64,000 bases of DNA from contig CAZNAA010000001.1 of assembly GCA_964571255.1 (NCBI GenBank), forward strand, positions 620,666-684,665, read 5' to 3'. Below the pieces are notes generated by a model that made no database searches, was not told where the DNA came from, and saw only the letters and a list, made by a program, of their open reading frames with translations. The translations under genes were made by a program, and so were the position numbers. Positions 15,244 to 37,276 of this stretch are shown here, piece after piece (the first letter of the stretch is position 1; the number at the start of each line of letters is the position of its first letter). Origin of the DNA: an uncultured Gammaproteobacteria bacterium. GTDB lineage: Bacteria; Patescibacteriota; Microgenomatia; Levybacterales; UBA12049.

Positions 15244-16848
15244 TTACATTAAGCACGTAAACGGATGAGTTTTATCTTGTTTATAGATCCCACCCCACTC
15301 AACTACGGTGAATCCTTCTCGTTTAAATGTATGTATTTCAGGCTTTTCTATAGCAATAGGTGTATTAATAGGCTCGAAATAGAACATCACTCGAAGCAAA
15401 GAAGTAGGGGATGGAAAGACTGAAAGAGGAGATAATTCTGCAAGAGTTTCTTCAGAAACAAGCCCAACAAGATAATACGGAGACGATGGAAGAATTGGAT
15501 TCCAGTATTCTAAAAAGTCGTTTTTTTCTTTTTCATTAAGACCTACCTCAGTTAAAATCTTAGCTAAATCCTGAGACAAGGTAGAGGCGGGAAAGACATA
15601 GCCTTTAGTTGGTCTGCTAACTTTTTGATCAGGAAGTTTAGCTTCATAATATAAATAATCATAATATTTGTCTCCTCCCCAAATTTGTCCTGAGGGATGA
15701 GCGATAACACTCCATCCTGAAGTTGGGTAAGAAGGAGAAGTATAGGTCATCGGACCGACAGGTTTTACCAAAACATGTACAGGCTGTTTTATCTCTGGAT
15801 ACAGATATACAGCCGGCTTACATTCAGGAGTCCACCATCCCCATGGTTCAACTCCTGGTGCAATAGGGGTAAATGTGCCAATTTGAAGCGTATTTTTCCC
15901 ACTAGCTCCTGTAGTTTCTTCGTTGATTTGAAAGGACTTTGGATCTGGTACTGGATAAGCAGGCGAAACATATTTGTAAATGACTCCCTCTTCTCCTGGT
16001 TCTGGAGCATCATCAAAGAGAATCAGTTGGGGCATGATGGACTCACTAACGTAATGAGCAGAGTAGGTTTTTTGCTTCCCTTTATACGTAAAGGTATATT
16101 TCCCCCGAGGAAATTTATTTGATAAGTTATATTCTCCAGTCCCCGTTGTTTTATAATCATAGGCCAGAAGAGAGTATTTTGTATTTGCTGGCGGTTTAAT
16201 CTCGCATCTGTCACCAATCGGAACTCCATTTTGTGTCACAATATAACACCCGTCCCCTGAGCCATTCTGCCAGCTAGTAATAGCAGCGCTATTTAGCGAG
16301 GTTGGAGGATTTATATTTCCTGCTTCATCACGAGTTAAAGGCCGAGGACCGAGTTGAGAATTTAAATTACAATGCTCTTGAATAAAACCAGGAATTGGGT
16401 TGTTTTCTTCATAATAGACGTCAAAAAATATATAAACTGGACTATTTTGCTCTGGAGAAACATCTTGACTGACATCGACAAATACCATTTTAAAAGCATC
16501 ATCAGTCCACCCTGAGAGATAGATTCTATCATCAACAAAATATAACTCTCGTGTCTTTCCTTCGATAGTAATATTTTGTCCGGATTTTTCTAAATGCAGT
16601 GAGAGTTCTATTTTTAGAAATGGTACAGCTTTTCTAATGAGTCTGTAATTCTTACCATTAAAACTTAAAGGAGTACCTGAATTTGGAGGAATAACACATG
16701 GCTGAAGTTCTACATTTACGGAAGTTGGCGCGTTCGTCGTTTTGTCTGGTGTATAAAAGAGTCCTGAAAGTAATACGGCAAACACTGTTGCTACTCCCAA
16801 TCCTAAAATAACACTTAATTCAGAATCACCACGCAAAAGTTTTTTCAT
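15244..16848 (-). CDS. Hypothetical secreted/membrane-anchored protein (534 aa)
   Basis: N-terminal TM/signal anchor, no recognisable family. Confidence 0.6.
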   Translation of the reverse strand: MKKLLRGDSELSVILGLGVATVFAVLLSGLFYTPDKTTNAPTSVNVELQPCVIPPNSGTPLSFNGKNYRLIRKAVPFLKIELSLHLEKSGQNITIEGKTRELYFVDDRIYLSGWTDDAFKMVFVDVSQDVSPEQNSPVYIFFDVYYEENNPIPGFIQEHCNLNSQLGPRPLTRDEAGNINPPTSLNSAAITSWQNGSGDGCYIVTQNGVPIGDRCEIKPPANTKYSLLAYDYKTTGTGEYNLSNKFPRGKYTFTYKGKQKTYSAHYVSESIMPQLILFDDAPEPGEEGVIYKYVSPAYPVPDPKSFQINEETTGASGKNTLQIGTFTPIAPGVEPWGWWTPECKPAVYLYPEIKQPVHVLVKPVGPMTYTSPSYPTSGWSVIAHPSGQIWGGDKYYDYLYYEAKLPDQKVSRPTKGYVFPASTLSQDLAKILTEVGLNEKEKNDFLEYWNPILPSSPYYLVGLVSEETLAELSPLSVFPSPTSLLRVMFYFEPINTPIAIEKPEIHTFKREGFTVVEWGGIYKQDKTHPFTCLM

Positions 16849-16892: not shown

Positions 16893-18629
16893 TTAGACTT
16901 CTATGACAACAGGCAAAATCAAAGGTCGTCTTTTGAGAACTTTAAAGATATGTCGAGTCGCAATATCTCCAACGAGTTTTCTCAAATGGACCCAGTTGGT
17001 TACTTTGCCTTTTTGTTTTCCTAGTGCAAGCTGAATTTCTTTAGGAAGAGAAAGAGATAGAGTTTTTTGATCATTAGGAGAAAAACCTCTGGTAACAAGA
17101 GAGGGTGCATCGACTAATTGTCCAGTTGAAGCATTCACTTCAGCCATCACGATAAGAATTCCTTCTTTAGCAAGCTTTTCTCTATCTCTAAGTACATATT
17201 GATCTACTTCTTCACCTGACACGTGGTCAACAAAAACAGTTTTGACTTCAATTTTCTTTCCGAGTCGTGCAACTCCATCCTCAAAAATAATTTCTTGCCC
17301 GTTTTCCGGAATAATTTGATGCGTCTGATCATATCCCATGGCGGTTGCAAGGAGTTTGTACGCCATCATATGTTTGTAATTTCCACTAGTTGGCAGAACG
17401 TATTCTGGCTTGGTCAATGAGATCATGAGTTGTAAATCCTGCTGACTTCCGTGTCCTGACACGTGATAGACTGCTCCACCTGGTGTTGAATAGAGAATTC
17501 TGACTCCCTTTTTCGCAACTGTATCAATAAGAGAGGTAACAGACACTTCGTTTCCAGGAATTGGATCAGCTGACATCACAATCATATCTTTTGGAGTCAG
17601 TTTAATTTCTCTATGTTCTCCATTAGCAATTCGAGTGAGAGCTGAGTTCTCCTGTCCCTGAGATCCAGCAGCCAATAATACTAATTGGTGATCAGGAATA
17701 TGATTAATCTGATCCATCTCCACTTCCATTCCAGCTGGAATTTTCATATACCCTAAACTTGAAGCCACATCTTTGACTTTTAACAGAGATCTTCCGATAA
17801 AACACACCTTTTTATTCAATTTGATGGCAGCAGCAAGAGTTTGATTCCATCTGGCAATTTGTGAGGAATAAGTAGTTAAAATAAACTTTCCTTCACACGA
17901 CCGCATGGCATTCTCAATCGTTTGTGCCAATGGTTGCTCAGTTGGAGAATGACCTGGTTTTTCTGCACCTAAACAGTCAGAAATCAGACACATCACCCCT
18001 TTTTTCCCGGCTTCTGTATATCCTTGAAAATCAGATCCCTTCCCGTCCTCTGGCATAAATTCAAATTTAAAATCTCCCGTATGAAGTAAATTCCCTGCAG
18101 GAGTTTGGATAAAAAGACTCGCACTATCTGGAACAGAGTGAGTGACATGAATAAACGTCACCGCAAAACTACCTATTTTGACGGTTGGATTTGAAAATTC
18201 CACTGGTTTTACGACTGGTTTGAGGCGAAAATCCAACAATTTGGCGTTAGCAAGTTGAGCTGTAAAGGGTGAAGCATAGATAGGAAAAGTTGTTTTTAAT
18301 TGAGGAAGAACAAACGGAAGAGCTCCGATATGATCTTCATGCCCGTGCGTTAAAACCATTCCAACAATTTTTTTGTTGGTAGTCAAAAGATAGGAGATAT
18401 CTGGGAGAAGAAGATCTACTCCAAGCATGGTTTCATCGGCAAAACCAATTCCACACTCTGCCAGTAAGATTTCGTCTCCATATTCATAAACGTACATGTT
18501 TTTAGTTACGTCCTCAACGCCACCAAGTGGCATGAAAGAAACTATTTTTCGACTCACCTTTACTTCAGGCTTGAGTTTATAATGAGGTTTTTGTGGTTGA
18601 GATGAAACTAAGGGTTGTATTGGATCCAT
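16893..18629 (-). CDS. rnj: Ribonuclease J (metallo-beta-lactamase/beta-CASP RNase)
   Basis: HGHEDHIG motif, beta-CASP and C-terminal domain, 578 aa. Confidence 0.9.
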   Translation of the reverse strand: MDPIQPLVSSQPQKPHYKLKPEVKVSRKIVSFMPLGGVEDVTKNMYVYEYGDEILLAECGIGFADETMLGVDLLLPDISYLLTTNKKIVGMVLTHGHEDHIGALPFVLPQLKTTFPIYASPFTAQLANAKLLDFRLKPVVKPVEFSNPTVKIGSFAVTFIHVTHSVPDSASLFIQTPAGNLLHTGDFKFEFMPEDGKGSDFQGYTEAGKKGVMCLISDCLGAEKPGHSPTEQPLAQTIENAMRSCEGKFILTTYSSQIARWNQTLAAAIKLNKKVCFIGRSLLKVKDVASSLGYMKIPAGMEVEMDQINHIPDHQLVLLAAGSQGQENSALTRIANGEHREIKLTPKDMIVMSADPIPGNEVSVTSLIDTVAKKGVRILYSTPGGAVYHVSGHGSQQDLQLMISLTKPEYVLPTSGNYKHMMAYKLLATAMGYDQTHQIIPENGQEIIFEDGVARLGKKIEVKTVFVDHVSGEEVDQYVLRDREKLAKEGILIVMAEVNASTGQLVDAPSLVTRGFSPNDQKTLSLSLPKEIQLALGKQKGKVTNWVHLRKLVGDIATRHIFKVLKRRPLILPVVIEV

Positions 18630-18634
18630 ATGAG

Positions 18635-19810
18635 TTACCAGGAAGGTAAAAATTCTTTAATATTTGATTGATCTACCTTTACACTTTCTACTTTTCCCTC
18701 AACAATCATTCGTGCAACCTTTCGACACATGCCCTCAATCAGTCTTTCTAAACTTCGAATGCCTGAGTCAAATCCTAAAGGCCTAATAAGAAGCGGCCAA
18801 ACAGAATCATCCACTTGTAACTGAGGTTCTGATAATCCTGTTCCTAATCGCACTCTATTAAACAGATATTGTTTCGCAATGGTTATTTTCTCTTGATCTG
18901 TATAGGAGGGCATCTGGATGATCTCTAAACGGTCTAGAACTGCGGTTGAGATGTTTTTGGTATTATTTGCCGTTGCGATAAACAACACGTTTGAGAGATT
19001 TACTGGATAGTCAATATAATGATCGGTAAAAGCTGCATTTTGCTCAGGGTCTAATAACTCAATGAGAACTCCCATAATATCAGCCCGAGCATTATCAGCA
19101 ACTCTATCTAATTCATCAAGAAGAATCACAGGATTTTTTGTTCCTGCAACACTAAGTTTTTTAATAACGCTCCCTGGTTCTGCATCAGGATACGCTTTTG
19201 ACTGTCCTCTGAGGACTCGTGAATCTGCCATACCTCCAAATGGAATACGAGCAAACTTTCGCCCTAAGGCTTCAGCTATAGAAATTGCCAGGGTTGTTTT
19301 TCCTGTTCCAGCCAATCCAACAAGGCACAAAATAGGAGCATGAGAAATCGTGTCTTTTTTACCAGATTTGAGATTTAAAATAATCGTTGCTAAGTATTCC
19401 AAAATTCTATCTTTAATAGGGTCTAATCCATAATGATTCTTATCAAGAACTTGCTTGGCTTTAATCAAATCCAGTAAGTCCTCAGATTGCGTATTCCAAG
19501 GAAGTCCTAGTACCCAGGTAATGTATGAAGAAGTATTTTCGTACTCTAAAATATAGTTAGTACTCATATACCCACTACTGGCACGAACCAAAGCAAGGCG
19601 TGATACGCGCTCTAAAAGAGTTTGCTTTAAATCCGAAGGAAGCGTAGTTGATTCAACTCGCTCTCCTAATTTTCGAATTTGATCATTTGATTCTATCTTA
19701 TCATTTCCGTTTCCATTCGTTTGAATTTGTGGCACGTCAGTAGTACTCGTTGGAGAGGGGTCTAAAGGAGTTTGATGTGGCGCTTGAAACAGCGGATGAG
19801 TTGGATCCAT
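18635..19810 (-). CDS. Lon-like AAA+ ATPase lacking LAN N-domain and S16 protease domain
   Basis: LGLPWN, LDKNHYGLDPIKDRILEYLA, Walker A LCLVGLAGTGKTT, Walker B VILLDELD, LDPEQNAAFTDHYIDYPVNLSNVLFIATAN; ends right after AAA+ alpha-subdomain; start ATG 19810 (MDPTHPL) because ATG 19831 overlaps the -10. Confidence 0.75.
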   Translation of the reverse strand: MDPTHPLFQAPHQTPLDPSPTSTTDVPQIQTNGNGNDKIESNDQIRKLGERVESTTLPSDLKQTLLERVSRLALVRASSGYMSTNYILEYENTSSYITWVLGLPWNTQSEDLLDLIKAKQVLDKNHYGLDPIKDRILEYLATIILNLKSGKKDTISHAPILCLVGLAGTGKTTLAISIAEALGRKFARIPFGGMADSRVLRGQSKAYPDAEPGSVIKKLSVAGTKNPVILLDELDRVADNARADIMGVLIELLDPEQNAAFTDHYIDYPVNLSNVLFIATANNTKNISTAVLDRLEIIQMPSYTDQEKITIAKQYLFNRVRLGTGLSEPQLQVDDSVWPLLIRPLGFDSGIRSLERLIEGMCRKVARMIVEGKVESVKVDQSNIKEFLPSW

Positions 19811-19830
19811 ATATGTAATACTATACAGCA

Positions 19831-19858
19831 TTTATAAAACCGGAGCAAAATGAGTCAA
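19831..19858 (-). promoter_or_regulatory. Promoter TTGACT(19853-19858)-N16-TATAAA(19831-19836) for lon-like/rnj operon
   Basis: near-consensus hexamers on minus strand. Confidence 0.35.
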
Positions 19859-19867
19859 AGACTACTC

Positions 19868-22258
19868 TTAATAGTGGACTTTACGACGAGCTGAGGAGGA
19901 AGGAGATGAACTCCGTCCGTCCCGAGAAGCATTTTGTCTTTTAAGTTGTTCTGTTAACGGATGAAGTGGTGGTCTATCACTACTTGATCTCTCTGGTCTA
20001 GGTCCCCTGTATCCTCCACTAGCTGCTCTAGGTCCACGATCTCCACCACGTCTATCTCCTCCACGATCTGAATAAGGAGGGCGACTTGTGCCTCCACCTT
20101 CTCTTCGAGGTCCACGATCTCCACCACCACTACTTCGTGCTGGTCCTGTATCTTCACTATCTAAAAGCATAGTCAAATTAATTCGTCCTTGATCATCAAT
20201 TTCAACTACGCGCACCTTTACCATTTGTCCAAGTTGGACAACGTCTTCTGGACTGTTTACAAATTCTTTGGACATTTTGGAAACATGAACAAGTCCTTCT
20301 TTTCCAGGAAGTACCTCAACAAAAGCTCCAAAATTTAAGATTCGTTTTACTTCTCCTTCAAATTCTTCCCCAACCATTACTTCTCGCATCATGCCAGTAA
20401 CCCAATCAACTGCTTTTTGAACTGATGCTTCGTCCACTCCTGAGACCGTAACAGTTCCATCATCTTCAACATCAACCGTTGCACCAGTTTGAGCAATGAT
20501 ATTTTTAATCACTTTTCCTCCAGGCCCAATGAGTTCTCCAATCTTGTCAACGGGAATTTGGAGTGTTTCAATCTTTGGAGCATACATCGAAACTTCTTTT
20601 CGAGGCTCTGCAATCGTTTTTGTCATGGTCTCAAGAATTTGCATTCGAGCTGTCTTTGCTCGAGCAAAGATTTCAGCAATTTCCTCAACTGAAAGACCTG
20701 GAATTTTTACATCCAACTGAATTGCCGTAACTCCTGTGTCAGTTCCTGCTACTTTGAAATCCATATCCCCTGAGAAGTCTTCAAGACCAATAATGTCTGT
20801 AAGAAGCGCTGATGCACCATCAACTGACATTCGTCCAATCGAAATTCCTGCAACTGGCTTTAAAATGGGAACTCCAGCATCCATTAGAGCAAGAGTTGAT
20901 CCACAGGTTGATGCCATTGAGGATGATCCATTTTGGGAAAGAACTTCAGATACGAGTCTAATGGTATAAGGGAAGTCTTTTTGTGAAGGGATTACTGCTT
21001 GCAAAGCTCGTTCTGCAAGTGCTCCGTGTCCAATCTCACGCCGAGATGGAGAGCCAATTCTTCCTGCTTCTCCAACGGAGAAAGGTGCTGCGGAGTAGTG
21101 ATGGATATAGCGTTTTGACTCTTCACCTTCTGCTGACTCAATAAGAAGCTCCATACGAGGGGATCCAAGCGTTGCAATGGTTAGAGCCTGAGTAAGACCG
21201 CGTTGGAAAACAGCTGAACCGTGAGTTCGTGGAAGAACTCCAACTGTGGTAGTGATTTCTCGGATTTCATCCATTTTTCGTCCATCAGGTCGTTTAGATT
21301 TTTCAACTACATTTGATCTAATTTTTTTAAACATCAAATACTCAACAGCTTTGGATAGAAGTTTTTTATCCATAGTTGTATTTGGATCTGCCATTTTGGC
21401 ATCAGTAGAGATAGCAGTTAGCAAATCATCTGTCTCTGTTCCTGAGCCTTCTTTATTAGCCCTCGTTGCGATCAGTCCTTCAACCTCTTTGGCATAGCCT
21501 TTTTCAACAAATTTAACAGCATCCATAAGCGCTGTATTTTGTGGAACAGCTTGTTTTTTCTGTCCAACCTTTTTGACTAATTCTTCAATAAGTGAGAGAA
21601 TTTTTGCTGTTTCTGTATGAGCCATTTTTACTGCTTCAACTAACACTTCCTCAGAAACTTGAAGAGCTCCAGCTTCAATCATGTTGGTCTTATCTTTAAG
21701 TTGGGAGAAAACGATATCTAAATCCGAATGCTCTGCTTCACTTGCAGTTGGATTTGGAAGAAATTGTGACGAATTTCCTTCTTTTTCTGTTATATACCCA
21801 ATACGAACTGCTCCAATTGGTCCACTCCAAGGAATACTAGAAATAGCAAGAGCTGCAGAAACGGCATTAACAGCAACGATATCTGGCTCATGTTCTGAAT
21901 CAACAGATAAAACGGTTGCAATCACTTGTACTTCCTGTTTGAATTCTTTGGGAAAAAGAGGACGAATAGAGCGATCAATAAGACGGCCAATCAGAATAGA
22001 TTCATCTGTTGGACGACCTTCCCGTTTTACCCAACGACTTCCTTTAATGCGTCCGCCTGCATAAAGTTTTTCAACGTATTCAACACTGAGTGGGAAATAA
22101 TCAATATCATCACGTGCTTTACCCTCAACAACGGTCACAAGTACGACAGTATCCCCAAGAGTTGCGAGAACTGATGCGGTTGCTTGTGGAGCAAGAAGCC
22201 CTGTTTCTAATGTTAATGTTTTCCCTGCAAATTCTGCAGATACTGAGGTCTTAGCCAT
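19868..22258 (-). CDS. pnp: Polyribonucleotide nucleotidyltransferase (PNPase) with ~110-aa Arg/Gly/Ser-rich C-terminal tail
   Basis: two RNase PH domains, KH and S1 domains; tail RGPRREGGGTSRPPYSDRGGDRRGGDRGPRAASGGYRGPRPERSSSD. Confidence 0.95.
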   Translation of the reverse strand: MAKTSVSAEFAGKTLTLETGLLAPQATASVLATLGDTVVLVTVVEGKARDDIDYFPLSVEYVEKLYAGGRIKGSRWVKREGRPTDESILIGRLIDRSIRPLFPKEFKQEVQVIATVLSVDSEHEPDIVAVNAVSAALAISSIPWSGPIGAVRIGYITEKEGNSSQFLPNPTASEAEHSDLDIVFSQLKDKTNMIEAGALQVSEEVLVEAVKMAHTETAKILSLIEELVKKVGQKKQAVPQNTALMDAVKFVEKGYAKEVEGLIATRANKEGSGTETDDLLTAISTDAKMADPNTTMDKKLLSKAVEYLMFKKIRSNVVEKSKRPDGRKMDEIREITTTVGVLPRTHGSAVFQRGLTQALTIATLGSPRMELLIESAEGEESKRYIHHYSAAPFSVGEAGRIGSPSRREIGHGALAERALQAVIPSQKDFPYTIRLVSEVLSQNGSSSMASTCGSTLALMDAGVPILKPVAGISIGRMSVDGASALLTDIIGLEDFSGDMDFKVAGTDTGVTAIQLDVKIPGLSVEEIAEIFARAKTARMQILETMTKTIAEPRKEVSMYAPKIETLQIPVDKIGELIGPGGKVIKNIIAQTGATVDVEDDGTVTVSGVDEASVQKAVDWVTGMMREVMVGEEFEGEVKRILNFGAFVEVLPGKEGLVHVSKMSKEFVNSPEDVVQLGQMVKVRVVEIDDQGRINLTMLLDSEDTGPARSSGGGDRGPRREGGGTSRPPYSDRGGDRRGGDRGPRAASGGYRGPRPERSSSDRPPLHPLTEQLKRQNASRDGRSSSPSSSARRKVHY

Positions 22259-22762: not shown

Positions 22763-23893
22763 TTAGACATTTGAGGAGCCTTTATATACTTTAGGGGTTA
22801 GCCAATCAGCAGGAGGAGTATTTTGTCCTTTATCACTTTGTGGTCTACTTTCCTGTTGGACTACTTGTTCCTCAACTACATCAGAAACTGCAGGAACTGA
22901 AAACGCTAAATCTGCAAAAGGATCTCGTTGAGGTTTTGGTTGGGTTGGTTGTCCACCTTGAGTATTTTGATTACTTTGCGATCTTGGTTGCTGTTGCTGA
23001 CGATTTTGATTCTGTTGTTTTGGCTGTTGGTTTCGTTGCGTATTTTGTCCAATTTGATTTTGTTGCTGTAGCTTTGATTGAGCTGGCTGATTTTGTTGTT
23101 TTGGTTGCTGCATTAAACTCATAAAGTCATCTCTGGCTTCAGTATGAAGAGCACGAGCTTGTTCCCGAGTTGCTCCTTTTTTCATGAGTTCTGCTGCCAT
23201 TTCAAAAGCAAGAAAACTCGTATTATCGTTTTGGAAATTATTTGTTCCGTCAATAATTCCAGAAAGGAGGTTTTGGGCTGCGTCTTGATCAATAGAGGTT
23301 TCATATCCAAGGGTTAAAATAAGATCAGCAACTTGCTCAGAAAGAGAAGAGAATCGACCTGAAACTAAATTAATATCGCCATATCTTTCATTACTGTCAT
23401 TATTATCAATATTTACAATCGTTGCATCTGTTAATGAGTCAGCAGCAATAGATGTATACATATCATCGTTATAGGACACCCCGATGGTGAGCAATAATTG
23501 AATAACTCCTGTTCCGCGGGTAAACTTAACACTTTGTTCATCAAAACTCAAACCAATCTCTCCAGCTTTGACTACAATGTTGAGAAAGTTATCATCCATG
23601 GTATAGGAAACGTTCTCAATTTCTCCGTCTTTATACGGGAAGGAAACAATCAAATCGCCTTCATTTGAAGCAGGCTGAGTGTGTACTTGATCAATACCTA
23701 CTAACGAGCCAACAGCAACGGTTGGTTCTGATCCAGTAATAACTTGGGGGGATTTTTGCAAACTACGCAAAACAAGAGATAAAGAAAGAGCTGCAGCCAT
23801 CTGGTCAACGGTTGGATTTTTTCCTACCAAAACCACGATTTTTTCGCTTTTCTCAATGGTACTTTTAAGATTTTGCAGTAATTGTTCGTCCAT
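22763..23893 (-). CDS. DHH/DHHA1-like (NrnA-like) protein with degenerate catalytic motifs and ~120-aa Gln/Asn-rich C-terminal tail
   Basis: N-terminal IVVLVGKNPTVDQMAAALSL resembles NrnA motif I region but lacks DGD; DHH replaced by DQVH; tail QQPKQQNQPAQSKLQQQNQIGQNTQRNQQPKQQNQNRQQQQPRSQSNQ. Confidence 0.5.
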   Translation of the reverse strand: MDEQLLQNLKSTIEKSEKIVVLVGKNPTVDQMAAALSLSLVLRSLQKSPQVITGSEPTVAVGSLVGIDQVHTQPASNEGDLIVSFPYKDGEIENVSYTMDDNFLNIVVKAGEIGLSFDEQSVKFTRGTGVIQLLLTIGVSYNDDMYTSIAADSLTDATIVNIDNNDSNERYGDINLVSGRFSSLSEQVADLILTLGYETSIDQDAAQNLLSGIIDGTNNFQNDNTSFLAFEMAAELMKKGATREQARALHTEARDDFMSLMQQPKQQNQPAQSKLQQQNQIGQNTQRNQQPKQQNQNRQQQQPRSQSNQNTQGGQPTQPKPQRDPFADLAFSVPAVSDVVEEQVVQQESRPQSDKGQNTPPADWLTPKVYKGSSNV

Positions 23894-27657: not shown

Positions 27658-30033
27658 TTATTTAGAAATCGTATAGATAATTTCTTCATTCTCAACTGAA
27701 AATACTACCTTACTTCCCCGTTGCAGCATATCTTGCAGTTTCATTTTCGCTAAAGCATCCTCAATCGTATCCTGAATATAGCGTCGTAAAGGCCTGGCTC
27801 CAAACTGATTATTAGCTCCATGTGTAGCAATAAAGCCCAAGATGCTTTGATCAAAGCTAACCAAAAAATCTTGTTCTTCAAGGTATTTTGTTAACGATGC
27901 AAGCATGAGCTTGGTCACTTCTATTTGTTCCTGCGCAGAAAGAGGTTCAAACATGATGACATCATCAAATCGATTCAAAAGTTCAGGAGTATACAACCCT
28001 TGTGTTTGCAAAAATTCTAACAGATCTGTTTTCAACTGTTCTGCTTGAGTTTCTGCTTGAATTTTTTCTCGAATAAATTCTGCCCCTGCATTTGAAGTTG
28101 CAATAATGATTGCATTTTTAAAGGACACAACTCTTCCTAACGCATCTGTTAGTCTTCCATCGTCAAGTACCGGAAGGAGAAGATTTAAAACATCTCTGTC
28201 TGCTTTTTCAAATTCATCAAGAAGAATAAGACTAGAGGGATGATCCCGAACAGCTTCTGTTAATTCTCCTCTTCCATTATTTCCTCCAGGCATGCCAATC
28301 AGTCTCGCAACTCCTTCTGCTCCTCTAAATTCACTCATATCAAATCGAAGCATTTTCCCTTCTCCTCCAAAATAGACTGAGGCTAAGGCTTTAGCTGTTT
28401 CTGTTTTTCCAACTCCGGTTGGACCTAGAAACAGAAACGAAATAGGTTTTTTAGGAGGTTCTATATTTGACCGAATTCGCCTCACTGCCTCGGCAATTGC
28501 CACAGTTGCGTGCTGTTGACCAATAATTCTCTCTTGTAACTTGTCTTCAAGGGACAAAAGAGTTTTCTTTTCTTCTTGGCTTGGAGGAAGAGCCGTCGCA
28601 ACCCCTTTTTGTCCAACCGTTTGAGCAACATCTGATTCTTCTAAGAATTGTACTTGTCTTGTCTGGTGGACCCGTTGCCTGACATATCGGATACTGTCCT
28701 CAAGAAGGTTTATCGCACTTCCCGGAAGAACAACGTCTTGGGCATAAGAATCAGAGAGGCGAATTGATTCACGTAAGGCTTGATAACGGATTTTTACTCC
28801 AGTTCGTTTCTCTAAGTCTTCAACTTTTTCACATAAGATATGGAGTGCCGTTTGTTTATCAGGCTCTGAAATAGTAATAACCGTAAAAGCCTCACGAGCT
28901 GGACTATTTTCTAAGTATTGCTTATAGGCAGCTTGGGTCATAGTTGCAATAACAGGAAGTTTCCCATTTTTTAAATAAGGAAGGAGCGCTTCGGCAATAT
29001 TTACCTGGAAAGTAGGATTTCCCAGAATGTTTTCTAAGGCTGGAATATACAAAAGTACGTTATAAGAATGAGACACTTCTTGAATAATGGTTTGTAGCCT
29101 CGTTTCCAAATCAGCTCTATTAGCTGCTCCTGCCAAAAGTTGTCCTACCATTAACTCCAAAATTCGTCTGAAATTTAACTTTTCGGTAAGATTTCCAGAT
29201 TCTGTATCAAAAGCAAAGGCTTTTATGATACTCTCCTTCCCTACACCAATATCTCCAACCAGTAACACGTTATTATTCTCTGGTTTCTGAAGCGTTCCAA
29301 TTAACTCTTCATATTTTGCCTCTCTACTAAATAAATGAGGCCTTTGATAAGAGGAATAATAAAATTCTTGCGTATACTTTTGCGTTTCTGGGGTCCAGCC
29401 AGAAACTACTGCGTCTCCTATTCCTCTGCCACTGACCCGTACTCGAAACGGTTGTGGGTTTTCTTCTTCTGGATGAGCCATTCGAACCCAAGAGAGAAGA
29501 ACAAGGAGATCCTCTCGTTTTAAGTGGAGATTAAAAAGGGTTTGGCTTTGTTCCTCAATAAGCAACAAATAAGAAGCTAATAAATCCATTCGTAAAATGT
29601 ATTTACCCTTCACTTCTGTTGCTAATTCATAGGCAGTACGTAATAGTTGTTGCTGATCCACAAATATCTGAGGAATCATCTGTTTCTCAACTCCAAACCG
29701 GGTGAGAAAGAACTGCCCTTCAACCGTATTTAAAATATTGATTATTCCCCTTGTTCCTTTTTGATAGGCCAAAAGAGCATCAAGCGTACAACACTGGGTT
29801 AAATCAGAAGGATTTTCTGGAATCGTTTTATCAGGCATCATATGGCCTATTTTTCCAAAAACAAACAGCTCAGACGTAATTAAAAATTGAGTTAAAAAAA
29901 GCAAATAAGGAAAAAGGACTTTAGTCTCCCAAGAAAGATAGGCCAAATAGCTTAGTATTAAGACGCCTACTCCTCGAACAATAAGAAATTGCCAGGAAGT
30001 ATAGACTTGATAAATATGGGCAAAATATTTCAT
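27658..30033 (-). CDS. Hsp100/Clp-family ATPase paralog: N-terminal 2-TM anchor + Clp_N-like repeats, degenerate AAA D1 (Walker A GDIGVGKES, Walker B lost), intact D2, no M-domain
   Basis: TMs FLIVRGVGVLILSYLAYLSW / VLFPYLLFLTQFLITSELFVFG; D2 [55 protein letters not shown]; start overlaps upstream gene stop (ATGA). Confidence 0.85.
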   Translation of the reverse strand: MKYFAHIYQVYTSWQFLIVRGVGVLILSYLAYLSWETKVLFPYLLFLTQFLITSELFVFGKIGHMMPDKTIPENPSDLTQCCTLDALLAYQKGTRGIINILNTVEGQFFLTRFGVEKQMIPQIFVDQQQLLRTAYELATEVKGKYILRMDLLASYLLLIEEQSQTLFNLHLKREDLLVLLSWVRMAHPEEENPQPFRVRVSGRGIGDAVVSGWTPETQKYTQEFYYSSYQRPHLFSREAKYEELIGTLQKPENNNVLLVGDIGVGKESIIKAFAFDTESGNLTEKLNFRRILELMVGQLLAGAANRADLETRLQTIIQEVSHSYNVLLYIPALENILGNPTFQVNIAEALLPYLKNGKLPVIATMTQAAYKQYLENSPAREAFTVITISEPDKQTALHILCEKVEDLEKRTGVKIRYQALRESIRLSDSYAQDVVLPGSAINLLEDSIRYVRQRVHQTRQVQFLEESDVAQTVGQKGVATALPPSQEEKKTLLSLEDKLQERIIGQQHATVAIAEAVRRIRSNIEPPKKPISFLFLGPTGVGKTETAKALASVYFGGEGKMLRFDMSEFRGAEGVARLIGMPGGNNGRGELTEAVRDHPSSLILLDEFEKADRDVLNLLLPVLDDGRLTDALGRVVSFKNAIIIATSNAGAEFIREKIQAETQAEQLKTDLLEFLQTQGLYTPELLNRFDDVIMFEPLSAQEQIEVTKLMLASLTKYLEEQDFLVSFDQSILGFIATHGANNQFGARPLRRYIQDTIEDALAKMKLQDMLQRGSKVVFSVENEEIIYTISK

Positions 30034-30377
30034 ATGGCAGATACGATACTCATGATAACAAGAATGGTAACGACAAAAGGAAATCCAATAATAAAACTCA
30101 AAAGGAGTAGCTCAATAAAAAGAATCGGAAGCATCAGAATAAGCCACGTTAAAATAATACATAGTTTCACAAAAATTCCCATCACAATAGAGAATCTCAC
30201 AAGTCCTTCTCGATATTCATTTTTAATTGGTTGAAAAAAGGTTTGGAGAAGCATTTTTATGGAGAACATATGCATAAATGCCTTATTAAATGAGAGAAAA
30301 AAAAGTACTGCTTCTCGAGGTACTTCAATAAACCAAAAATGCAGAAAATAAAGAGGCAAAAGGGAGATATGTGACAT
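30030..30377 (-). CDS. Small polytopic membrane protein (115 aa, ~3 TM)
   Basis: hydrophobic ORF embedded in operon. Confidence 0.5.
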   Translation of the reverse strand: MSHISLLPLYFLHFWFIEVPREAVLFFLSFNKAFMHMFSIKMLLQTFFQPIKNEYREGLVRFSIVMGIFVKLCIILTWLILMLPILFIELLLLSFIIGFPFVVTILVIMSIVSAI

Positions 30378-30415
30378 GCTTTCAGTCTAAAGGGTTTTTA
30401 ATGGGTTTGCAATTT

Positions 30416-33280
30416 CTATGCAGCTGCAGAAAGTGTCGCACCCGTTGCTGGAGGTTTCGGAGCATCAGGCTGTGACTGATTAAACTCTTGCGTCGGTGGT
30501 AAATTCCACCCAGAAGAAGAAGCAGCAGGAGGAGGAGGTACAGCTGATACAGGGGATGAACTCATAACTGGTGCACCTTCAGTTATTGGAGGCAGCGATG
30601 ATACAGGAGAAGGGGTAGAAGCGAGTAGAGACGGAGGTACCTCTACTGGAGGCATTTGAGATGTGTCAGCAAGATTCTTTTCACTCATTGGATCAATTTC
30701 ATCTAGTTTTGCATCAGGAGTTGGAGGGATTTCTTCTCCTTGAACAGGAGAGGCATCCGGTTTTGCACCACCTGCACTAGCAGAGCCTTTAGCAAAGGTG
30801 AATTCTGATTTTGTAGCGTCGTATCCAACTAAAATAACATCAGGTGAGGCAAATGTTTTCCCAATAAGCTTGACTGCGATGGGATTTTCAATAGAGGTTT
30901 GAATCAACCGTCGTAACGGACGAGCTCCATAGACTGGATCATATCCTTCCTTGGCAAGCTCCATGAGAGCAGATTGGGTAATTTGGAGATCAAGTCCTTG
31001 CTCTTGAAGCAGATGGGCTGTTTTGGCAATATTATTTTTGGCAATTGAGGCCATATCAGCTTGTGCTAGAGGCTTAAAGACAACTACTTCATCAAATCGA
31101 TTCAAAAGCTCTGGCTTGAAAAACTTATGCAACTCATCAGAAAGAAGTGAATTAAGGTCTGCAAAGTCTTTCTGATACTCCTCCTCAGTTGCATGAGGTT
31201 TGCTCATTTGCTGCTGGATCAAAGCACTTCCGATATTTGAAGTAGCAATAATAATGGTGTTTTTGAAAGAAATAGTATTTCCTTTGTTATCCGTAAGTCT
31301 CCCATCCTCAAGCAGTTGCAGTAAAATATTAAAGACATCAGGATGGGCTTTTTCAATCTCATCAAGAAGCACAATGGAGTACGGTTTTCGTCTTACTGCT
31401 TCTGTTAATTGACCACCCTCTTCATAGCCAACATAGCCTGGAGGAGCTCCGATAAGCTTGGCTACTTCATGTTTTTCCATATACTCACTCATATCAAGTC
31501 GAACAAGTGCGTCTTCTTTGCCAAAAAGAATTTCAGCTAGGGTCTTGGCCAACTCTGTTTTTCCAACTCCAGTAGGGCCGAGGAAAATAAATGAAGCAAT
31601 CGGACGAGTAGGACTTGCGAGTCCAATTCTTCCTCTTTGAACTGCCTCTGTTACTGATTGGACAGCTTCTTCTTGCCCAATAAGACGTTTGTGGATAAGC
31701 TCAGCCAAGTGAAGTAGTTTTTCTCCTTCATCTTCAGTCAATTTAGTAATAGGAATCCCTGTCCAACTACTTACAACCTTTTCAATATCTGATTTGACTA
31801 CTGCTGTATCTGTTTTTTTACCTGTTGAGTGTTGCAGCTTAACATCTGCTGCAGCCTCATCCATCAAATCCACTGCTTTATCTGGCAAAAATCTCTCTCC
31901 AATATATTTTTTTGACAAATGGACTGCGTCTTTTAAGGTTTCATCTGAAAAAGTCACACTATGAAACTTCTCATATTTTGGCTTAATGATTTGAAGCATC
32001 TCAACTGCAACTTCCTCAGTTGGTTCGTCAACTATAATTGGCTGAAAGCGTCTTTCAAAGGCTTTATCCTTTTCAAAATGCTTCCGATACTCACTGGTTG
32101 TTGTCGTTCCAATAAGCTGCAACTGTCCCCGAGCTAGATAGGGTTTAACAATATTTGAAGCATCCAGTGCTCCTCCCTCATCTCCTGCTCCAATAAGAGT
32201 ATGAATTTCATCAATGAAAAGAATGATCTCTCCACTCGCCTCAATGGTTTCTTTAATAACATCTCGAAGTCTCTCCTCAAACTCTCCCCGATGAGATGCT
32301 CCGGCCACAAGAGAGGCAAGATCCATTTGAATAATTCTTTTACCTGAGAGATCTTTTGGAGCAGTTCCTCCCACAATTGATTGAGCAAGGCCTTCAACAA
32401 TAGCCGTCTTTCCAACTCCTGCCTCTCCAATGATAATAGGATTATTTTTCGATCTTCTGAGTAAAATATGCACCATTCGCTCAATTTCTTTATCTCGTCC
32501 TGCAATCGGATCTAATTTTCCGTCTTTGGCTTGTTGAGTGAGATCAATTCCATATTTCTCCAAAACTGATTTTTTTCCCGTGTGATAGGTGGGATTTTTA
32601 GCAAGAGACTGAACAAGCTTATCTTTTTGAATTCCCTTCTCACTGAGTGCTTTATTCATCGATTCCAAAGAGGCAAGAGCTACGAGGAGATCTTCAGGTG
32701 AGATAAAGGCAACTCCTCGTCCTTTCACGTCCTTATATGCAGCATCAAAAACTGATTTGGTTTGATCACTCAGTTTTGGCTGCCCTGAAAAATTCCCTGG
32801 AATTTGTTTCGCTTGGATTTCTTTAGAAAGGGCTCCAACATCTACTGATTCTTTTTGCAAAAGAGCAAAAATTTCTTGATCAAAAAGAATTCCATATAAA
32901 AGCAAATCTGGCTCAATCTTTTCTTTTTTCAATCTTGTTGCTTCTTCTTGAGCATGGGTCAAGGCTTGGGAAGATCTCGCATCTAGATGAGAAAGAACTG
33001 ACATGTCTTGCTTGGTTGCAGGATCTAAGGAAGAAGACGTTGAGGCAACAGGTGTTTGTCCTATAGGAGCTTCTGGATCAAGAGGAGTTGGATCATTAGG
33101 AACAGGAGATACAGGCGTACTCGTTGCACCTGAAGAAGCTAATGGAGCTTGAGGTACAGGAGTAGCTACTGGCTGAGCAGATGGTGTTTGTCCGTCTTCT
33201 GGTTTATGAAATAAATTACCAAACATAGTTCCATTATGGACATAAGTTTTGTCAAAAAGCAACTTATAACCTGTCTTCAC
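30416..33280 (-). CDS. ClpA/ClpC-type Hsp100 ATPase (two Clp_N repeats, canonical D1 and D2, no long M-domain) with Pro/Ser/Thr-rich N- and C-terminal extensions
   Basis: D1 [32 protein letters not shown]; D2 [56 protein letters not shown]; 954 aa; overlaps upstream gene by 17 nt. Confidence 0.9.
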
Positions 33281-36200
33281 TTACAGGAGCTTTTTCCTCT
33301 GTTTTACTTGGTGGAATCTCTTCTTTTATCTCCATGTGTTGCACCTTCATCTCAGGCTTTTTCTCGTCACGTCTGGCAGGAAGTTTTGATTCTTCCTCTT
33401 GCTCTTTTTTATCGACATCCTCAAGTACATCTTTGGCTGCTTCTTGTTTGGCCTTCAAATAGCCAACAATTTCTGTTTGTGAGAAGCCTCCAATAAGAAG
33501 GAACGGCAGAATACCTGATACTTTTTTCATTCCTTCCTGTCTTTTTTCATTGACTGGAGAGGAAAGAAGGTTAATGGCCTCAGTAATCTCTTCAATATCT
33601 TGACTGATAAATTGAGCCTTTGGTACTTTTTGTCCTTGTCTAATTGGTTCATCGAGATTTTCATAGTTTTCCTTCCAGATTTTTTTGACTGCTTCATAAT
33701 CCTCAAGTGAGACGTTTTGAACTCTATTCACAACGGGGAAGGAGACATCTTTTTTAATCAGTGAGGTATTGGGTTTTTGCTGGCGTTGTTTGACCAACAA
33801 ACTATAAATAAATCCAGCTAACTGATCACCCTTGTCTTTGGCCTTTACTAGTTCCTCTTTGACTTTCTCAACGGTAACTACAGGCTGTACAGGTGTAACC
33901 GTTTGGATAAGTTGAGTAGCAAAAGGTGTTTGTTGTTGAGCCTCAAGACGGATTTGTTGGGTGAGATTAAAGACTGTTTCTTTACTCGCTTCTCCTCTTC
34001 CCTCAATCATATCCAAAAGTTGCGTGGCAAGTTTGTTGCCTTTTACTTGCTCTTCTTTAATAAAGGTAAGAAGTACTGTGTAGGACTCTTTCTCTTTTTG
34101 ATCAGTAATAAGCTCTGGTTTAAGAAGTTTCTCAACAATCTCTGTAACTTTTTGTGACTGAACTGGAGCAGGAGTAGATTGGACAGGAGTAGTTTGTTTT
34201 TGAACAAGTGTAGAAAGAACCGATTGGAGAGTTGTACTTCCTCGTACTTCTTTTATCGTTTGAGTTACTTGCTTAATCAGATCTTGCGTAATATTTTGAG
34301 GTGATTGGAGAATAGGGAGAAGTTGAGTAGCTAACTGATCACCTTTTTGGGCATCTTTGACAATCGTTTCTCGAATAGTCATAGCTGTTTCTTTTTCTTT
34401 TTGAGGAAGCAAATCAGGTTGAGCTAGGTGTTGGATAAAGGTAGCAACATGATTTTCTGTAATTTCCGTTGTCCCTTGTTGCAAATACGTATTGGTAATG
34501 TAGTTTACAACTGATTGATCTGTTTTATTAACTTGGCTCATTTGCTGAGTGAGAGAATTCATAACAGATGGAGAAAGAGATTGCGTTTGGGTAATAAGTG
34601 AGAGCAGTTGACGAGCTAGTGGAGTACCCAACACTGCTTCTTTCGTAATCGTTTCTTTCAAAACTTCTATATTTTGCTTGTCAGAAATGTTGGTAATCAC
34701 CTCAGGATGTGCGAGTTGGTTAATAATAGTAGTTAAGGCTTGCTCTGTTGAAACAGCTTGGGTACTACTCGACTGATCAGTTTTGGAGGAGATATATTGA
34801 TTAAGAGTTGTGGCAAAAGAGTTTCCCGCAACAGATTGCTGGCTTACGGTCTCTTTGACTTTCTCATAGACTGTTTTTTCGGTTATTTGAGTAACTCGCT
34901 CAGGTGTTGCAATGTTATTTAAGATATTAATTAACACTGGTCTGTCGTCTGAAACAGTAACAGGAGTTGAAACAATAGCACTGGATGCTTGCAATACGAC
35001 ATTGGCAAATTGATTCCCTCTTTGACTTTCATTTCTTAACGTCTCTCGAATCCTTTCAAATTGTTGTCTTTCAACAGGAGTTCTAGCCAGTTGAGGATTT
35101 GAGATTTGTTGGAGATTTTGAACAGACACAGGAGTACTCGTTTGCGTTGTTGTTGTCGTTTTTATTTGATTAGTATCGAACATGGCAATATCTCGCATAG
35201 TAGGAATTGCTACTTGGATTTGTTTGAGAACTTCATTTAACCTACTCACCTCTGTACTTCGAATAACAGGAGTTGATTGCTGCTGTTGCACTGAAACCGT
35301 TTGTCTTAATGGCCTTGCTTGAGGCAGTGACTTGGCCTGAGAGGCTGGAGTAACCGATTGAACGATAGGTTCTGAGAAAGGAAGTTGCAGCTTTCGTCCA
35401 AACGGCAAACTGAGAGCCTTTCCAGTTGGGAAGGAAGGAGGAGTAGGTGGAGGTGGTGGAGATAGTGGTTGACGATTAAGCATAGTATTTGAGAGAGCAA
35501 GAAACTGCTTCATTCCTGGAGCATCATTTAAAGCAAGACTAAATAGATAATCAAGAAAAATACGAAGCAAGATAAAGGGCAAAATCATAACAGCCCACAG
35601 CATCATGAGACAAATAGTGTAGAGAGCAAACGTTTCAGGAAGATTCACGCTACTGGCAAGACCAATAGCTTGTCTTGGTCCTCCTAGTAAAATATTCACT
35701 GCTGTTTGATAGACAGGAGTTGCCGTTTTCGTAACAATAGTTCCTGTTGGTTGATAAGAAAAAAGCGGAATGGTTGATTGCCACAAAGAGACAAGTCCTG
35801 CAAGGAGTACGGCAAAAAGAGGGCCATATAATACCCACCGGAAAAACTCCCCTATCCAAATTTTAGCGGTATTTCGAATCGGCCAGTAGAAAAGAAGCAG
35901 AGGGAAAATGGGAGAGATAATAATAAAAAACCACAATACTATTTTTCGAATAATAAGCATGGCAGCCATGGCATAATAGGTAACTGCAGTAAGTCTGGTT
36001 AAAAGAAGCGTCATGAACGCTGACTCATCAGTAAAGGAGTCTACTCGCTTGTACCCGATAAAGTCTTCATATTTAAATGCAATATTTAGCAAATTTTCTT
36101 GACTAATTGTTTGACGCACTGCAGCAGTGGCGGGATCTGGATTTCGCAGGAAAAACCCTTGGGTAATATCAGTTAGTTGATAAATGATCTGGACCATTCC

Positions 36201-36584
36201 AAATGAAAAGGTGACTAGAAGTAAAATTCCCACAAAGCGGGGAATAAATTTTTGCAAGCTAATATTACTTCCCCTAGTTATGAGCATCAAAAACGCTGTT
36301 GAGAGAATAAAGAGAGCAAAGAATGCATAGACAAGATTTCTGATAATAATCCAGAAAGGAATGAGAGGGTTTCCTTCGTTGCCTAACTGCACCCATTTGT
36401 AGTTTTCCAACGTCCAATCCAAAAACGCTCCAGCTCGTGCAGCTGTTTTTCCAACAAAGGTTACTTCATTATCAACAACCCACGTTCCAACTAAGTCAGC
36501 TGCAAAAATATGAGAGGGAACAAAGAACAAAAGAATACTAAAAATGGTAAGAAAAAGAAGAAAGTTGGGCAGCAAGCGTTTCAT
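33264..36584 (-). CDS. Large membrane protein (1106 aa): signal peptide + ~7-8 TM N-terminal module, poly-Pro linker, ~600-aa Gln/Thr/Ser-rich region of ~6 degenerate tandem repeats, acidic/Lys tail
   Basis: repeat signatures ETIVKDAQKGDQLATQLLPIL / ETITKEAVLGTPLARQLLSLI / EEQVKGNKLATQLLDMI / KAKDKGDQLAGFIYSLL / RNESQRGNQFANVVLQ / QQSVAGNSFATTLNQYI, each preceded by (H/Q)PE(V/L)IT-like segment. Confidence 0.8.
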   Translation of the reverse strand: MKRLLPNFLLFLTIFSILLFFVPSHIFAADLVGTWVVDNEVTFVGKTAARAGAFLDWTLENYKWVQLGNEGNPLIPFWIIIRNLVYAFFALFILSTAFLMLITRGSNISLQKFIPRFVGILLLVTFSFGMVQIIYQLTDITQGFFLRNPDPATAAVRQTISQENLLNIAFKYEDFIGYKRVDSFTDESAFMTLLLTRLTAVTYYAMAAMLIIRKIVLWFFIIISPIFPLLLFYWPIRNTAKIWIGEFFRWVLYGPLFAVLLAGLVSLWQSTIPLFSYQPTGTIVTKTATPVYQTAVNILLGGPRQAIGLASSVNLPETFALYTICLMMLWAVMILPFILLRIFLDYLFSLALNDAPGMKQFLALSNTMLNRQPLSPPPPPTPPSFPTGKALSLPFGRKLQLPFSEPIVQSVTPASQAKSLPQARPLRQTVSVQQQQSTPVIRSTEVSRLNEVLKQIQVAIPTMRDIAMFDTNQIKTTTTTQTSTPVSVQNLQQISNPQLARTPVERQQFERIRETLRNESQRGNQFANVVLQASSAIVSTPVTVSDDRPVLINILNNIATPERVTQITEKTVYEKVKETVSQQSVAGNSFATTLNQYISSKTDQSSSTQAVSTEQALTTIINQLAHPEVITNISDKQNIEVLKETITKEAVLGTPLARQLLSLITQTQSLSPSVMNSLTQQMSQVNKTDQSVVNYITNTYLQQGTTEITENHVATFIQHLAQPDLLPQKEKETAMTIRETIVKDAQKGDQLATQLLPILQSPQNITQDLIKQVTQTIKEVRGSTTLQSVLSTLVQKQTTPVQSTPAPVQSQKVTEIVEKLLKPELITDQKEKESYTVLLTFIKEEQVKGNKLATQLLDMIEGRGEASKETVFNLTQQIRLEAQQQTPFATQLIQTVTPVQPVVTVEKVKEELVKAKDKGDQLAGFIYSLLVKQRQQKPNTSLIKKDVSFPVVNRVQNVSLEDYEAVKKIWKENYENLDEPIRQGQKVPKAQFISQDIEEITEAINLLSSPVNEKRQEGMKKVSGILPFLLIGGFSQTEIVGYLKAKQEAAKDVLEDVDKKEQEEESKLPARRDEKKPEMKVQHMEIKEEIPPSKTEEKAPVSEDRL

Positions 36585-36702
36585 ACTATAAATTCATAAA
36601 AAGAGTAGACAGAATTACCTATCTCTCCTCTTGTATAGTAGCATATTTACTGACTCATATTGGAATAGATATTTAACAAATTGTGGATGAAAAAGAGATT
36701 CA

Positions 36703-36733
36703 GGTATCCCGCTGCAGTTAGCAGCGGAATACC
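36703..36733 (-). terminator. 13-bp stem hairpin GGTATcCCGCTGC-AGTTA-GCAGCGGaATACC followed on minus strand by UCUCUUUUUC
   Basis: seen directly; sits between GC-islet ORF and the Clp operon start. Confidence 0.5.
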
Positions 36734-36904
36734 ATACTCTTGCGATGATAGTGTGAAGGAGTAGTCTACGGTAGCCTGCATCTCCCACCCAATGGAATCA
36801 TGCCCCCAGCGTTTACCCACCCTGAGGCGCGTAGTCGCTTTGCAACCGCCTGCTCGTCTTCTTCTTTGGTACGGGCTTGACATGATCTCCATCCTTTCTT
36901 GTTG

Positions 36905-37276
36905 TTAACCATTTATCTGCTCGTCGATCATCGAGAGCAGCAGTTCGCGGACATTGTCCTCCGCTAACAACCGTCGGAGAGCAAGCCTCGTGATAGCACC
37001 CTTGAAGGCCGAGAGAAAGATCTCGATGATAGCGTGTTCGTGTTGGGAAGCAAAATTGTGTTTTTTTTGCTTCGCCAAATCCTGCCACCTCGGATAGTGG
37101 GGGCGTTCGTGGGGGAAGAACTTAACAGTCTTTTCCCCCCAGAAACGCCACCTGGGCCTGCGATGATCTACCCTATTGAACTTATCCCACGTTTCTATTG
37201 GAAGTAAGTCCACAAGTGCTACAACAAACGCTGTAGTATTGTTTTTGAGGTCGATTTGAGAATCTAGGATTTCCAT
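36905..37276 (-). CDS. Hypothetical protein in second GC-rich islet (~123 aa)
   Basis: GGAGG upstream of ATG 37276 (MEILDSQIDLK...); GC ~50%; overlapping alternative-frame ORFs judged spurious. Confidence 0.45.
   Translation of the reverse strand: MEILDSQIDLKNNTTAFVVALVDLLPIETWDKFNRVDHRRPRWRFWGEKTVKFFPHERPHYPRWQDLAKQKKHNFASQHEHAIIEIFLSAFKGAITRLALRRLLAEDNVRELLLSMIDEQING

Follow-up and report, generated by a model that had tools for sequence, protein, structure and literature searches.

A LonA-type ATPase gene between pnp and rnj

Lon is the textbook protein in which a single polypeptide chain carries both an ATPase and a protease. In a 64,000-nucleotide stretch of contig CAZNAA010000001.1 (assembly GCA_964571255.1; the whole stretch is referred to as the window), from an uncultured bacterium placed by GTDB in the Levybacterales of the Microgenomatia, we examined a minus-strand gene for a Lon-like AAA+ ATPase situated between pnp, encoding PNPase, and rnj, encoding RNase J (Table 1). 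The product of this gene is an ATPase-only descendant of LonA, in which a three-helix bundle is followed by an AAA+ alpha/beta domain and a Lon-type lid.

Several comparisons define this architecture. Pfam assigned AAA (residues 168-306) and Lon_lid (residues 331-381) to the protein and detected neither the LAN domain (LON_substr_bdg, PF02190) nor the protease domain (Lon_C, PF05362), while the NCBIfam model TIGR00763 ('lon') was matched only over profile positions 245-573 of 795, with 334 bits and thus below its equivalog cut-off of 608 bits. These results confirm the preliminary description of this gene, made from the sequence without database searches, as a Lon-like ATPase with neither a LAN N-domain nor an S16 protease domain. 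All of the top PDB matches were LonA proteins (E ~1e-76; aligned region, in E. coli numbering, approximately residues 250-579), a similarity well past what chance would give. The family has no Pfam or NCBIfam model of its own.

The structure was predicted with AlphaFold from an alignment of 15 family sequences, and the model has a mean predicted local distance difference test (pLDDT) score of 84 and a predicted template modelling (pTM) score of 0.76. The modelled helical bundle corresponds to the C-terminal portion of HI(CC) in LonA, a domain whose long coiled-coil part is missing here. Tyr103 and Trp106 of the bundle are the counterparts of Yersinia pestis Lon residues Y294 and W297. Ahead of the sensor-1 strand the model contains a short paired-strand element at residues ~267-277, the pre-sensor-1 beta-hairpin, and this predicted hairpin, together with a cis-acting sensor-2 arginine, is what characterizes AAA+ proteins of the HCLR clade. 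The top Foldseek matches to the model were Lon proteases only; the E. coli Lon fragment 235-584 (6n2i) gave a template modelling score of 0.91 normalised to target length and a root-mean-square deviation of 2.1 Å. The disordered tail that precedes the bundle is variable in the family, ranging from 0 to 316 aa.

The longest open reading frame (ORF) of the gene, at 18635-19831, encodes 398 aa from an alternative ATG at 19831, and residue numbers given here for parts of the protein follow this 398-aa numbering. The second in-frame ATG, at 19810, yields a product that begins MDPTHPL and is preferred as the start because near homologues open with MDP and Met8 is close to invariant in alignments. 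The resulting length of 391 aa agrees with the approximately 390 aa reported in the preliminary description, but two points of that description require correction: the gene is read from the minus strand, and 5 nt, not 4, separate its TAA stop from the RNase J ATG at 18629. The stop occupies the position at which, in the LonA alignment, the linker into the protease domain would start. On the other side, 36 nt separate the end of the PNPase gene from the longest ORF. A simple promoter scan found no qualifying site in this 36-nt gap, and a simple terminator scan found no terminator-like site in either this gap or the 5-nt gap ahead of rnj in the window; the totals of these scans did not exceed the shuffled expectation. 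The ATPase gene and rnj are probably co-transcribed.

Table 1. Coordinates, strand and supporting evidence for the ATPase gene, the parts of its product and the adjacent genes
Feature	Position in window	Strand	Evidence or remark
Protease-less LonA-type AAA+ ATPase gene	18635..19810	(-)	391 aa from ATG 19810; ORF list, sequence, Pfam
Disordered P/Q/T-rich N-terminal tail, residues 8-45	19697..19810	(-)	AlphaFold pLDDT <50 for residues 1-45
Three-helix bundle (NTD3H), residues 44-108	19508..19702	(-)	Model helices 44-61, 66-86 and 91-108; aligns with LonA ~250-310
AAA+ large (alpha/beta) nucleotide-binding subdomain, residues 122-306	18914..19468	(-)	Pfam, model, Foldseek
Walker A GLAGTGKT, residues 172-179	19295..19318	(-)	LonA counterpart GPPGVGKT
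Pore loop 1 RGQSKAYPDAEPG, residues 208-220	19172..19210	(-)	LonA counterpart RGHRRTY[VI]G[AS][ML]PG
Walker B VILLDE, residues 235-240 (D239, E240)	19112..19129	(-)	
Sensor-1 Asn289 (N473 of Y. pestis Lon)	18965..18967	(-)	
Trans-acting arginine finger Arg301 (R484 of Y. pestis Lon)	18929..18931	(-)	
Lon-type lid (alpha-helical small subdomain), residues 312-395	18647..18898	(-)	Pfam Lon_lid, model
Sensor-2 Arg359 (R542 of Y. pestis Lon), within lid	18755-18757	(-)	
TAA stop (18635-18637) and 5-nt spacer ahead of RNase J start	18630..18637	(-)	Sequence, LonA alignment
pnp (PNPase), upstream neighbour	19868..22258	(-)	Pfam; synteny 45/62 loci
rnj (RNase J), downstream neighbour	16893..18629	(-)	Pfam; synteny 52/64 loci

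The family and its pore loop

Proteins of this type are numerous. A 90%-clustered protein collection contained at least 8000 candidates, and the best 120 of these were all 357-451 aa long with AAA and Lon_lid as their only domains. NCBI lists them as 'AAA family ATPase' (Patescibacteria, Levybacteria), whereas JGI gives them the incorrect name 'ATP-dependent Lon protease'. In a library of representatives at 50% identity, about a dozen protease-less clusters with 41-59% identity ranked above canonical LonA (~780 aa, 36-46%), and a pattern scan in which each GTDB species was represented by a single genome identified at least 461 loci with the same architecture in 340-440 aa. We read the flanks, to 10 kb on either side, of the best 80 of these loci, which have 48-75% identity. 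The ORF ends at one alignment position in all 80, and the protein of the window is also present in an independent assembly.

Titled records among the 80 loci include Levy-, Gottesman-, Shapiro-, Woese-, Ames-, Davies- and Roizmanbacteria, 'Microgenomates' and WWE3, and two more representatives of the family are from Dojkabacteria. For loci from metagenome-assembled genomes (MAGs) in GTDB, record titles are unreliable as taxonomy: many MAG records that plainly come from Microgenomatia (L010, L011, L013, L020 and others) carry the title 'uncultured Gammaproteobacteria', which we take to be a mislabel, or else 'Pseudomonadales', 'Bathyarchaeia' or 'Methanoperedens'.

A neighbour-joining tree was calculated from 331 aligned columns of the AAA module for 91 family members and 59 LonA representatives. 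The family separated from LonA as one clade in 100 of 100 bootstraps, with a mean distance of 0.74 within the family, 0.75 within the sampled LonA proteins and 1.20 between the two groups. The depth of divergence and the single clade indicate that the domains were lost long ago and that the product has been retained ever since. The closest named full-length LonA proteins in the representative library are from Negativicutes/Clostridiales (Firmicutes) and Deinococcus and none is from the candidate phyla radiation (CPR), so that no LonA 'parent' from within the CPR was identified. As judged from these sequences, the family is an ancient one of the Microgenomates branch of the CPR/Patescibacteria in which both the LAN N-domain and the S16 domain have been lost, and it very probably represents a functional, protease-less, LonA-derived ATPase family. 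We found no description of a protease-less Lon, in the CPR or elsewhere, in the literature searched.

The window and the 80 loci (1.34 Mb) were also searched by tblastn with five LonA protease domains and five LAN domains as queries, and no significant match to an S16 or LAN domain was obtained in this set, the best E value being 0.046. That match, in L078, is spurious, as it falls within a uracil-DNA-glycosylase-like gene and on the opposite strand. A tblastn search of the window with an approximate sequence of the E. coli P-domain likewise gave nothing. A protease domain concealed by a frameshift is ruled out by the empty tblastn search and by the start of rnj 5 nt past the stop, in keeping with the preliminary description, which had seen no frameshift.

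To describe which parts of the motor are retained, conservation was counted in the same 91 family members and 59 LonA representatives, with the roles of conserved residues taken from the cryo-electron microscopy study of Yersinia pestis Lon (PMC7239648). The Walker A lysine and threonine, the Walker B aspartate and glutamate, the sensor-1 asparagine, the arginine finger and the sensor-2 arginine are each present in 91 of 91 members. Residues through which, in Y. pestis Lon, pore loop 1 is coupled to the pre-sensor-1 hairpin and to the three-helix bundle are also kept: the equivalent of Y294 is tyrosine in 87 of 91 and that of W297 is tryptophan in 75 of 91, the equivalent of Y456 is tyrosine or phenylalanine in all 91, that of E458 is aspartate in 87, and that of R396 is lysine or arginine in 87 (roles per PMC7239648).

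Pore loop 1 itself is different. The family motif is S[RK]xxP[DE]AEPG as against RRTY[VI]G[AS][ML]PG in LonA. At the position of Y398, which is tyrosine in 59 of 59 LonA proteins, the 91 family members have histidine (19), phenylalanine (18), serine (13), arginine (8), tyrosine (7), leucine (6) or other residues. The Ile/Val position (I399) is proline in 55 of 91 members, the G400 position is aspartate or glutamate in 81 of 91, and the Met/Leu position (M402) is glutamate in 87 of 91. The window protein (RGQSKAYPDAEPG) retains a tyrosine, Tyr214, followed by proline at the Ile/Val position, and shares the acidic residues D216 and E218 with the family. In these alignments the aromatic-hydrophobic threading pair of LonA is replaced by a conserved acidic motif, P-[DE]-A-E-P-G. 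Since mere decay would not yield a new and nearly invariant motif, the loop is still under selection, for other chemistry, and since the coupling elements around it are kept, we argue that it is still an actuated element. The statement in the preliminary description that Lon-specific motifs are retained thus holds for the hydrolysis motifs, which are invariant, but not for the Tyr-Ile/Val grip of pore loop 1, which has been replaced by the acidic loop throughout the family.

Comparison with the known classes of Lon places the protein with LonA, as an ATPase-only derivative, and so answers the proposal in the preliminary description to align it with LonA, LonB and LonC. Its bundle, AAA+ module and lid have the same predicted fold as those of LonA and are 36-46% identical, and its Walker A and B, sensor-1, arginine finger and sensor-2 residues are the same. 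The LAN N-domain, the long coiled coil of HI(CC) and the S16 protease domain with its Ser-Lys dyad are missing. Of six features that mark a LonA protein (S16A/TIGR00763), four are lacking, namely the N-domain, the protease domain, the Y398-I/V399 pair (Tyr-Pro in the window protein) and a score of at least 608 bits, and two are present, a helical HI(CC)/NTD3H region ahead of the AAA+ module (bundle part only) and complete AAA+ motifs. Assignment to LonB was rejected because the segment between Walker A and Walker B is continuous and LonA-like, without a membrane-spanning insertion, S16 is missing and no LonB structure was matched at E <= 1e-3; assignment to LonC was rejected because the ATPase motifs are intact, S16 is missing and LonC is not among the matches at E <= 1e-3. 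LonC of Meiothermus taiwanensis is described as a Lon-like protease without ATP-powered unfolding (PMC3391209). The family protein is its mirror image, in that LonC kept the protease and has a degenerate ATPase, whereas here the ATPase is intact and the protease is gone; in both cases a relative of Lon has given up one half of a bifunctional machine.

The closest laboratory counterpart is the limited-proteolysis fragment of E. coli Lon, residues 235-584 (PDB 6N2I), obtained by Rotanova and colleagues, which crystallizes as an open hexameric spiral (PMC6722904). The boundaries of this fragment, which contains the C-terminal part of HI(CC) and the AAA+ module, nearly match those of the natural protein. 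The E. coli fragment is, however, a laboratory product with the canonical Tyr-Ile loop, whereas the family protein is natural and independently evolving and its loop has been rewritten.

The family is a natural dissection of Lon and not a new kind of system, and its function has to be argued from homology and context. The abstract of a 2022 review describes all Lons as containing both the ATPase and the protease domain (PMC9569914). Here, a lineage with minimal genomes has long kept only the Lon motor, with all residues for ATP hydrolysis preserved and the gripping loop replaced by a conserved acidic one. This provides a natural experiment on the abilities of the Lon motor without its protease, on ring formation without the protease domain and on the relation of pore-loop chemistry to client choice, and it is relevant to proteostasis in the CPR, whose members are uncultivated symbionts with few genes for quality control.

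Genomic context and candidate functions

In the window, genes on the minus strand are arranged in the order hrcA, grpE, dnaK, dnaJ, an ORF of 1106 aa, two Hsp100 genes, nusA, infB, an NrnA-like ORF, rpsO and pnp, followed by the ATPase gene, rnj, an ORF of 534 aa and ftsK. Synteny was counted in those of the 80 loci that have enough flanking sequence, with pnp scored when on the same strand and within 2.5 kb upstream. By this measure pnp is upstream in 45 of 62 loci, rnj is downstream in 52 of 64, and both are present in 38 of 55. The gap to rnj has a median of 154 nt between high-scoring segment pairs and is often less than 40 nt. The same arrangement is kept in a member with 48% identity (P0134), and a looser form, consisting of pnp, four genes, the ATPase gene, a PilM-like gene and ftsK, occurs in one with 41% identity (P0158).

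A second context involves the chaperonin. In 10 of the 80 loci, and in P0271, groES-groEL is divergently adjacent to the ATPase gene; eight fully flanked loci have neither pnp nor rnj, and in most of these groEL-groES is the divergent neighbour. In one Dojkabacteria member groES-groEL is found 4.7 kb downstream, and the genes flanking another are unrelated. The groESL-linked sub-clade is Roizmanbacteria-like (L043, L045, L046, L047, L053, L066, L070, L071, L075, L089 and L092), with approximately 100-250 nt between groES and the ATPase gene. A search for sites resembling the controlling inverted repeat of chaperone expression (CIRCE), allowing up to 3 mismatches, found none in these spacers or in the window, a result that is uninformative as the consensus may not fit the CPR. 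A role in defence was rejected: PADLOC gave weak generic AAA matches (best DolB, E 7e-9, over the P-loop region), and the neighbours are housekeeping genes.

On balance, the evidence tips slightly towards a stand-alone oligomeric AAA+ remodeller that acts on protein clients with a client chemistry different from that of Lon. Such a protein would hydrolyse ATP and would assemble into a Lon-like hexamer, the latter being suggested by the hexameric spiral in crystals of the E. coli fragment with nearly matching boundaries. Its axial loops would grip and remodel protein clients, by holding, unfolding or disassembling them, and would not degrade them; the acidic loop would prefer segments that are basic or rich in Arg/Lys to generic hydrophobic stretches. 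Its acidity speaks against the threading of generic hydrophobic segments and also against that of nucleic acid. As RNA decay and the chaperonin are both housekeeping contexts, a role in proteostasis or in the maintenance of ribonucleoproteins is favoured over one in defence or mobile elements.

There are conceptual precedents for such an activity. Katanin and spastin are stand-alone AAA+ remodellers with charge-specialised pore loops that act on acidic tubulin tails. The likeness lies in a protease-free AAA+ ring with a conserved loop charge opposite to that of the client tail; katanin and spastin differ, however, in belonging to the classic AAA+ clade and not to HCLR, their loop charge is the opposite one, and homology is confined to the AAA+ core; the comparison serves as a lead and does not test the model. 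ClpB/Hsp104 and peptidase-free ClpX are closer relatives, from the HCLR clade, that act as ATP-driven unfoldases or disaggregases without proteolysis, but they have aromatic pore loops of their own and N-domains, an M-domain or IGF loops, none of which is found in the family protein.

Several considerations weigh against a stand-alone remodeller. For every member, the ATPase activity, the oligomeric state and the clients are predictions from sequence, and the proposed pairing of an acidic loop with basic clients is solely an argument from charge. In canonical Lon the protease domain adds strongly to hexamer stability, so that a protease-less protein may not form a stable closed ring. A partner protease acting in trans may be encoded elsewhere in the genome. 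The RNA-decay and chaperonin contexts also point in different directions, and the first of these may be inherited: the nusA-infB-rpsO-pnp cluster is widely conserved among bacteria, and in B. subtilis pnpA, rnjB and spoIIIE/ftsK also lie within one region, so that the order pnp-X-rnj-ftsK may reflect ancestry and not functional coupling.

The tight, co-directional position between pnp and rnj in 38 of 55 fully flanked loci, maintained down to 48% identity, instead suggests an accessory of the RNA degradosome that acts on PNPase and/or RNase J, for example by gripping the basic RG-rich tail of PNPase with its acidic loops, so as to build up, take apart or recycle an RNA-decay complex. Both gaps in the window are without a terminator-like site, the wider cluster includes the NrnA-like gene and rpsO, and the basic, RG-rich PNPase tails are complementary in charge to the acidic pore loop. 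We nevertheless consider this unlikely, as the groES-groEL-linked sub-clade has the same acidic loop, the genes beside other members are unrelated, the shared order may be a matter of ancestral synteny and contact with PNPase or RNase J is predicted from the genes alone. A more specific form of the proposal, in which the protein would be a dedicated non-proteolytic motor of the Microgenomates RNA-decay machine, with loops that grip basic tails of PNPase, RNase J or ribosomal proteins and with a role in assembling, recycling or regulating a PNPase-RNase J degradosome, we regard as quite improbable; if true, it would be the first Lon-derived motor re-tasked from protein degradation to the control of RNA turnover.

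It is also quite unlikely that the protein is one component of a split Lon, with S16 (and perhaps LAN) encoded by a separate gene elsewhere to give a two-component protease like ClpXP or HslUV. The end of the protein coincides with the start of the LonA linker to the protease, and many near relatives end in ...[FY][LI]P.[WY], in which the terminal aromatic residue could serve as a docking tail. This C-terminal motif is not family-wide, however, and no S16 or LAN domain was detected in the 64-kb window or within 10 kb on either side of the gene in the 80 genomes. A motor that feeds a protease would also be expected to have a threading-competent loop, yet the aromatic grip has been lost throughout the family.

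LonA proteins bind DNA, and the preliminary description suggested DNA binding, or a chaperone function, for this gene. A nucleic-acid-directed ATPase that keeps the DNA- or RNA-binding capacity of Lon would suit the neighbouring RNA enzymes, but it is very unlikely, because the conserved change in the loop adds negative charge, which disfavours threading of a polyanion, and Pfam detected no nucleic-acid-binding domain in the protein; the DNA-binding suggestion has no support in this analysis. Finally, although a Lon homologue that stops short could, in this single window, be taken for a non-functional remnant, a truncated lon pseudogene or an assembly or annotation artefact, we dismiss this explanation, and with it the misleading word 'remnant' in the preliminary description, since the same architecture is found in at least 461 species-level genomes, the catalytic residues are invariant, the new loop motif is conserved, the same protein occurs in an independent assembly, and the family is a deep, ancient single clade (100/100 bootstraps) under purifying selection with an internal divergence equal to that of the sampled LonA proteins.

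Other features of the locus

The PNPase of the window has a basic R/G-rich (RGG-like) C-terminal extension of approximately 95 aa past its S1 domain (19868-20160, minus strand). The PNPases in 58 of the loci L010-L089 nearly all have such basic tails, with a median of ~52 aa beyond S1 and many ending in RR or RRF. The R/G tail may matter as a ligand for the acidic loop of the ATPase.

Other genes of the cluster vary in their conservation. The ORF in the slot between infB and rpsO (22763-23893, minus strand) encodes 376 aa with no Pfam match and a long Q-rich tail at its end; residues 155-237 have a weak match to the DHH domain of the nanoRNase NrnA (PDB 8iu7, E 3e-8). This NrnA-like ORF is kept in the same slot in most related loci. 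The ORF of 534 aa between rnj and ftsK (15244-16848, minus strand) also has no Pfam match, is found in one of the 80 related loci (L013) and appears to be a lineage-specific insertion into the conserved cluster. In two WWE3 loci (L072, 3988-5143, and L078, 7221-8386) two genes lie between the ATPase gene and rnj, encoding a protein of ~172-175 aa and a family-4 uracil-DNA-glycosylase-like protein.

The proteostasis genes upstream occupy 27658-41665 on the minus strand and comprise hrcA, grpE, dnaK, dnaJ, the ORF of 1106 aa (33264-36584; no Pfam match) and two Hsp100/Clp ATPase genes. The latter, at 30416-33280 and 27658-30033, are 8-13 kb upstream of the ATPase gene, and the second of them has only weak matches in its first AAA half.

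The top-scoring matches in the representative search were proteins with an unusual multi-ring Lon architecture, P0121 (Dependentiae, 1113 aa), P0123 (1675 aa) and P0125 (1233 aa), in which 2-4 tandem Lon-type AAA+ modules are followed by a single S16 domain.

Two further minus-strand genes of the window encode uncommon domain combinations. One, at 51669-53813, encodes a protein of 714 aa with an OB anticodon-binding domain, a class II aminoacyl-tRNA synthetase core (tRNA-synt_2) and a C-terminal B3_4 domain, the usual home of which is the PheRS beta subunit. The other, at 58348-60138, encodes a protein of 596 aa that combines Ligase_CoA with a Citrate_synt C-terminal domain, as in ATP-citrate lyase or citryl-CoA lyase, an architecture that is unexpected for a reduced CPR genome.

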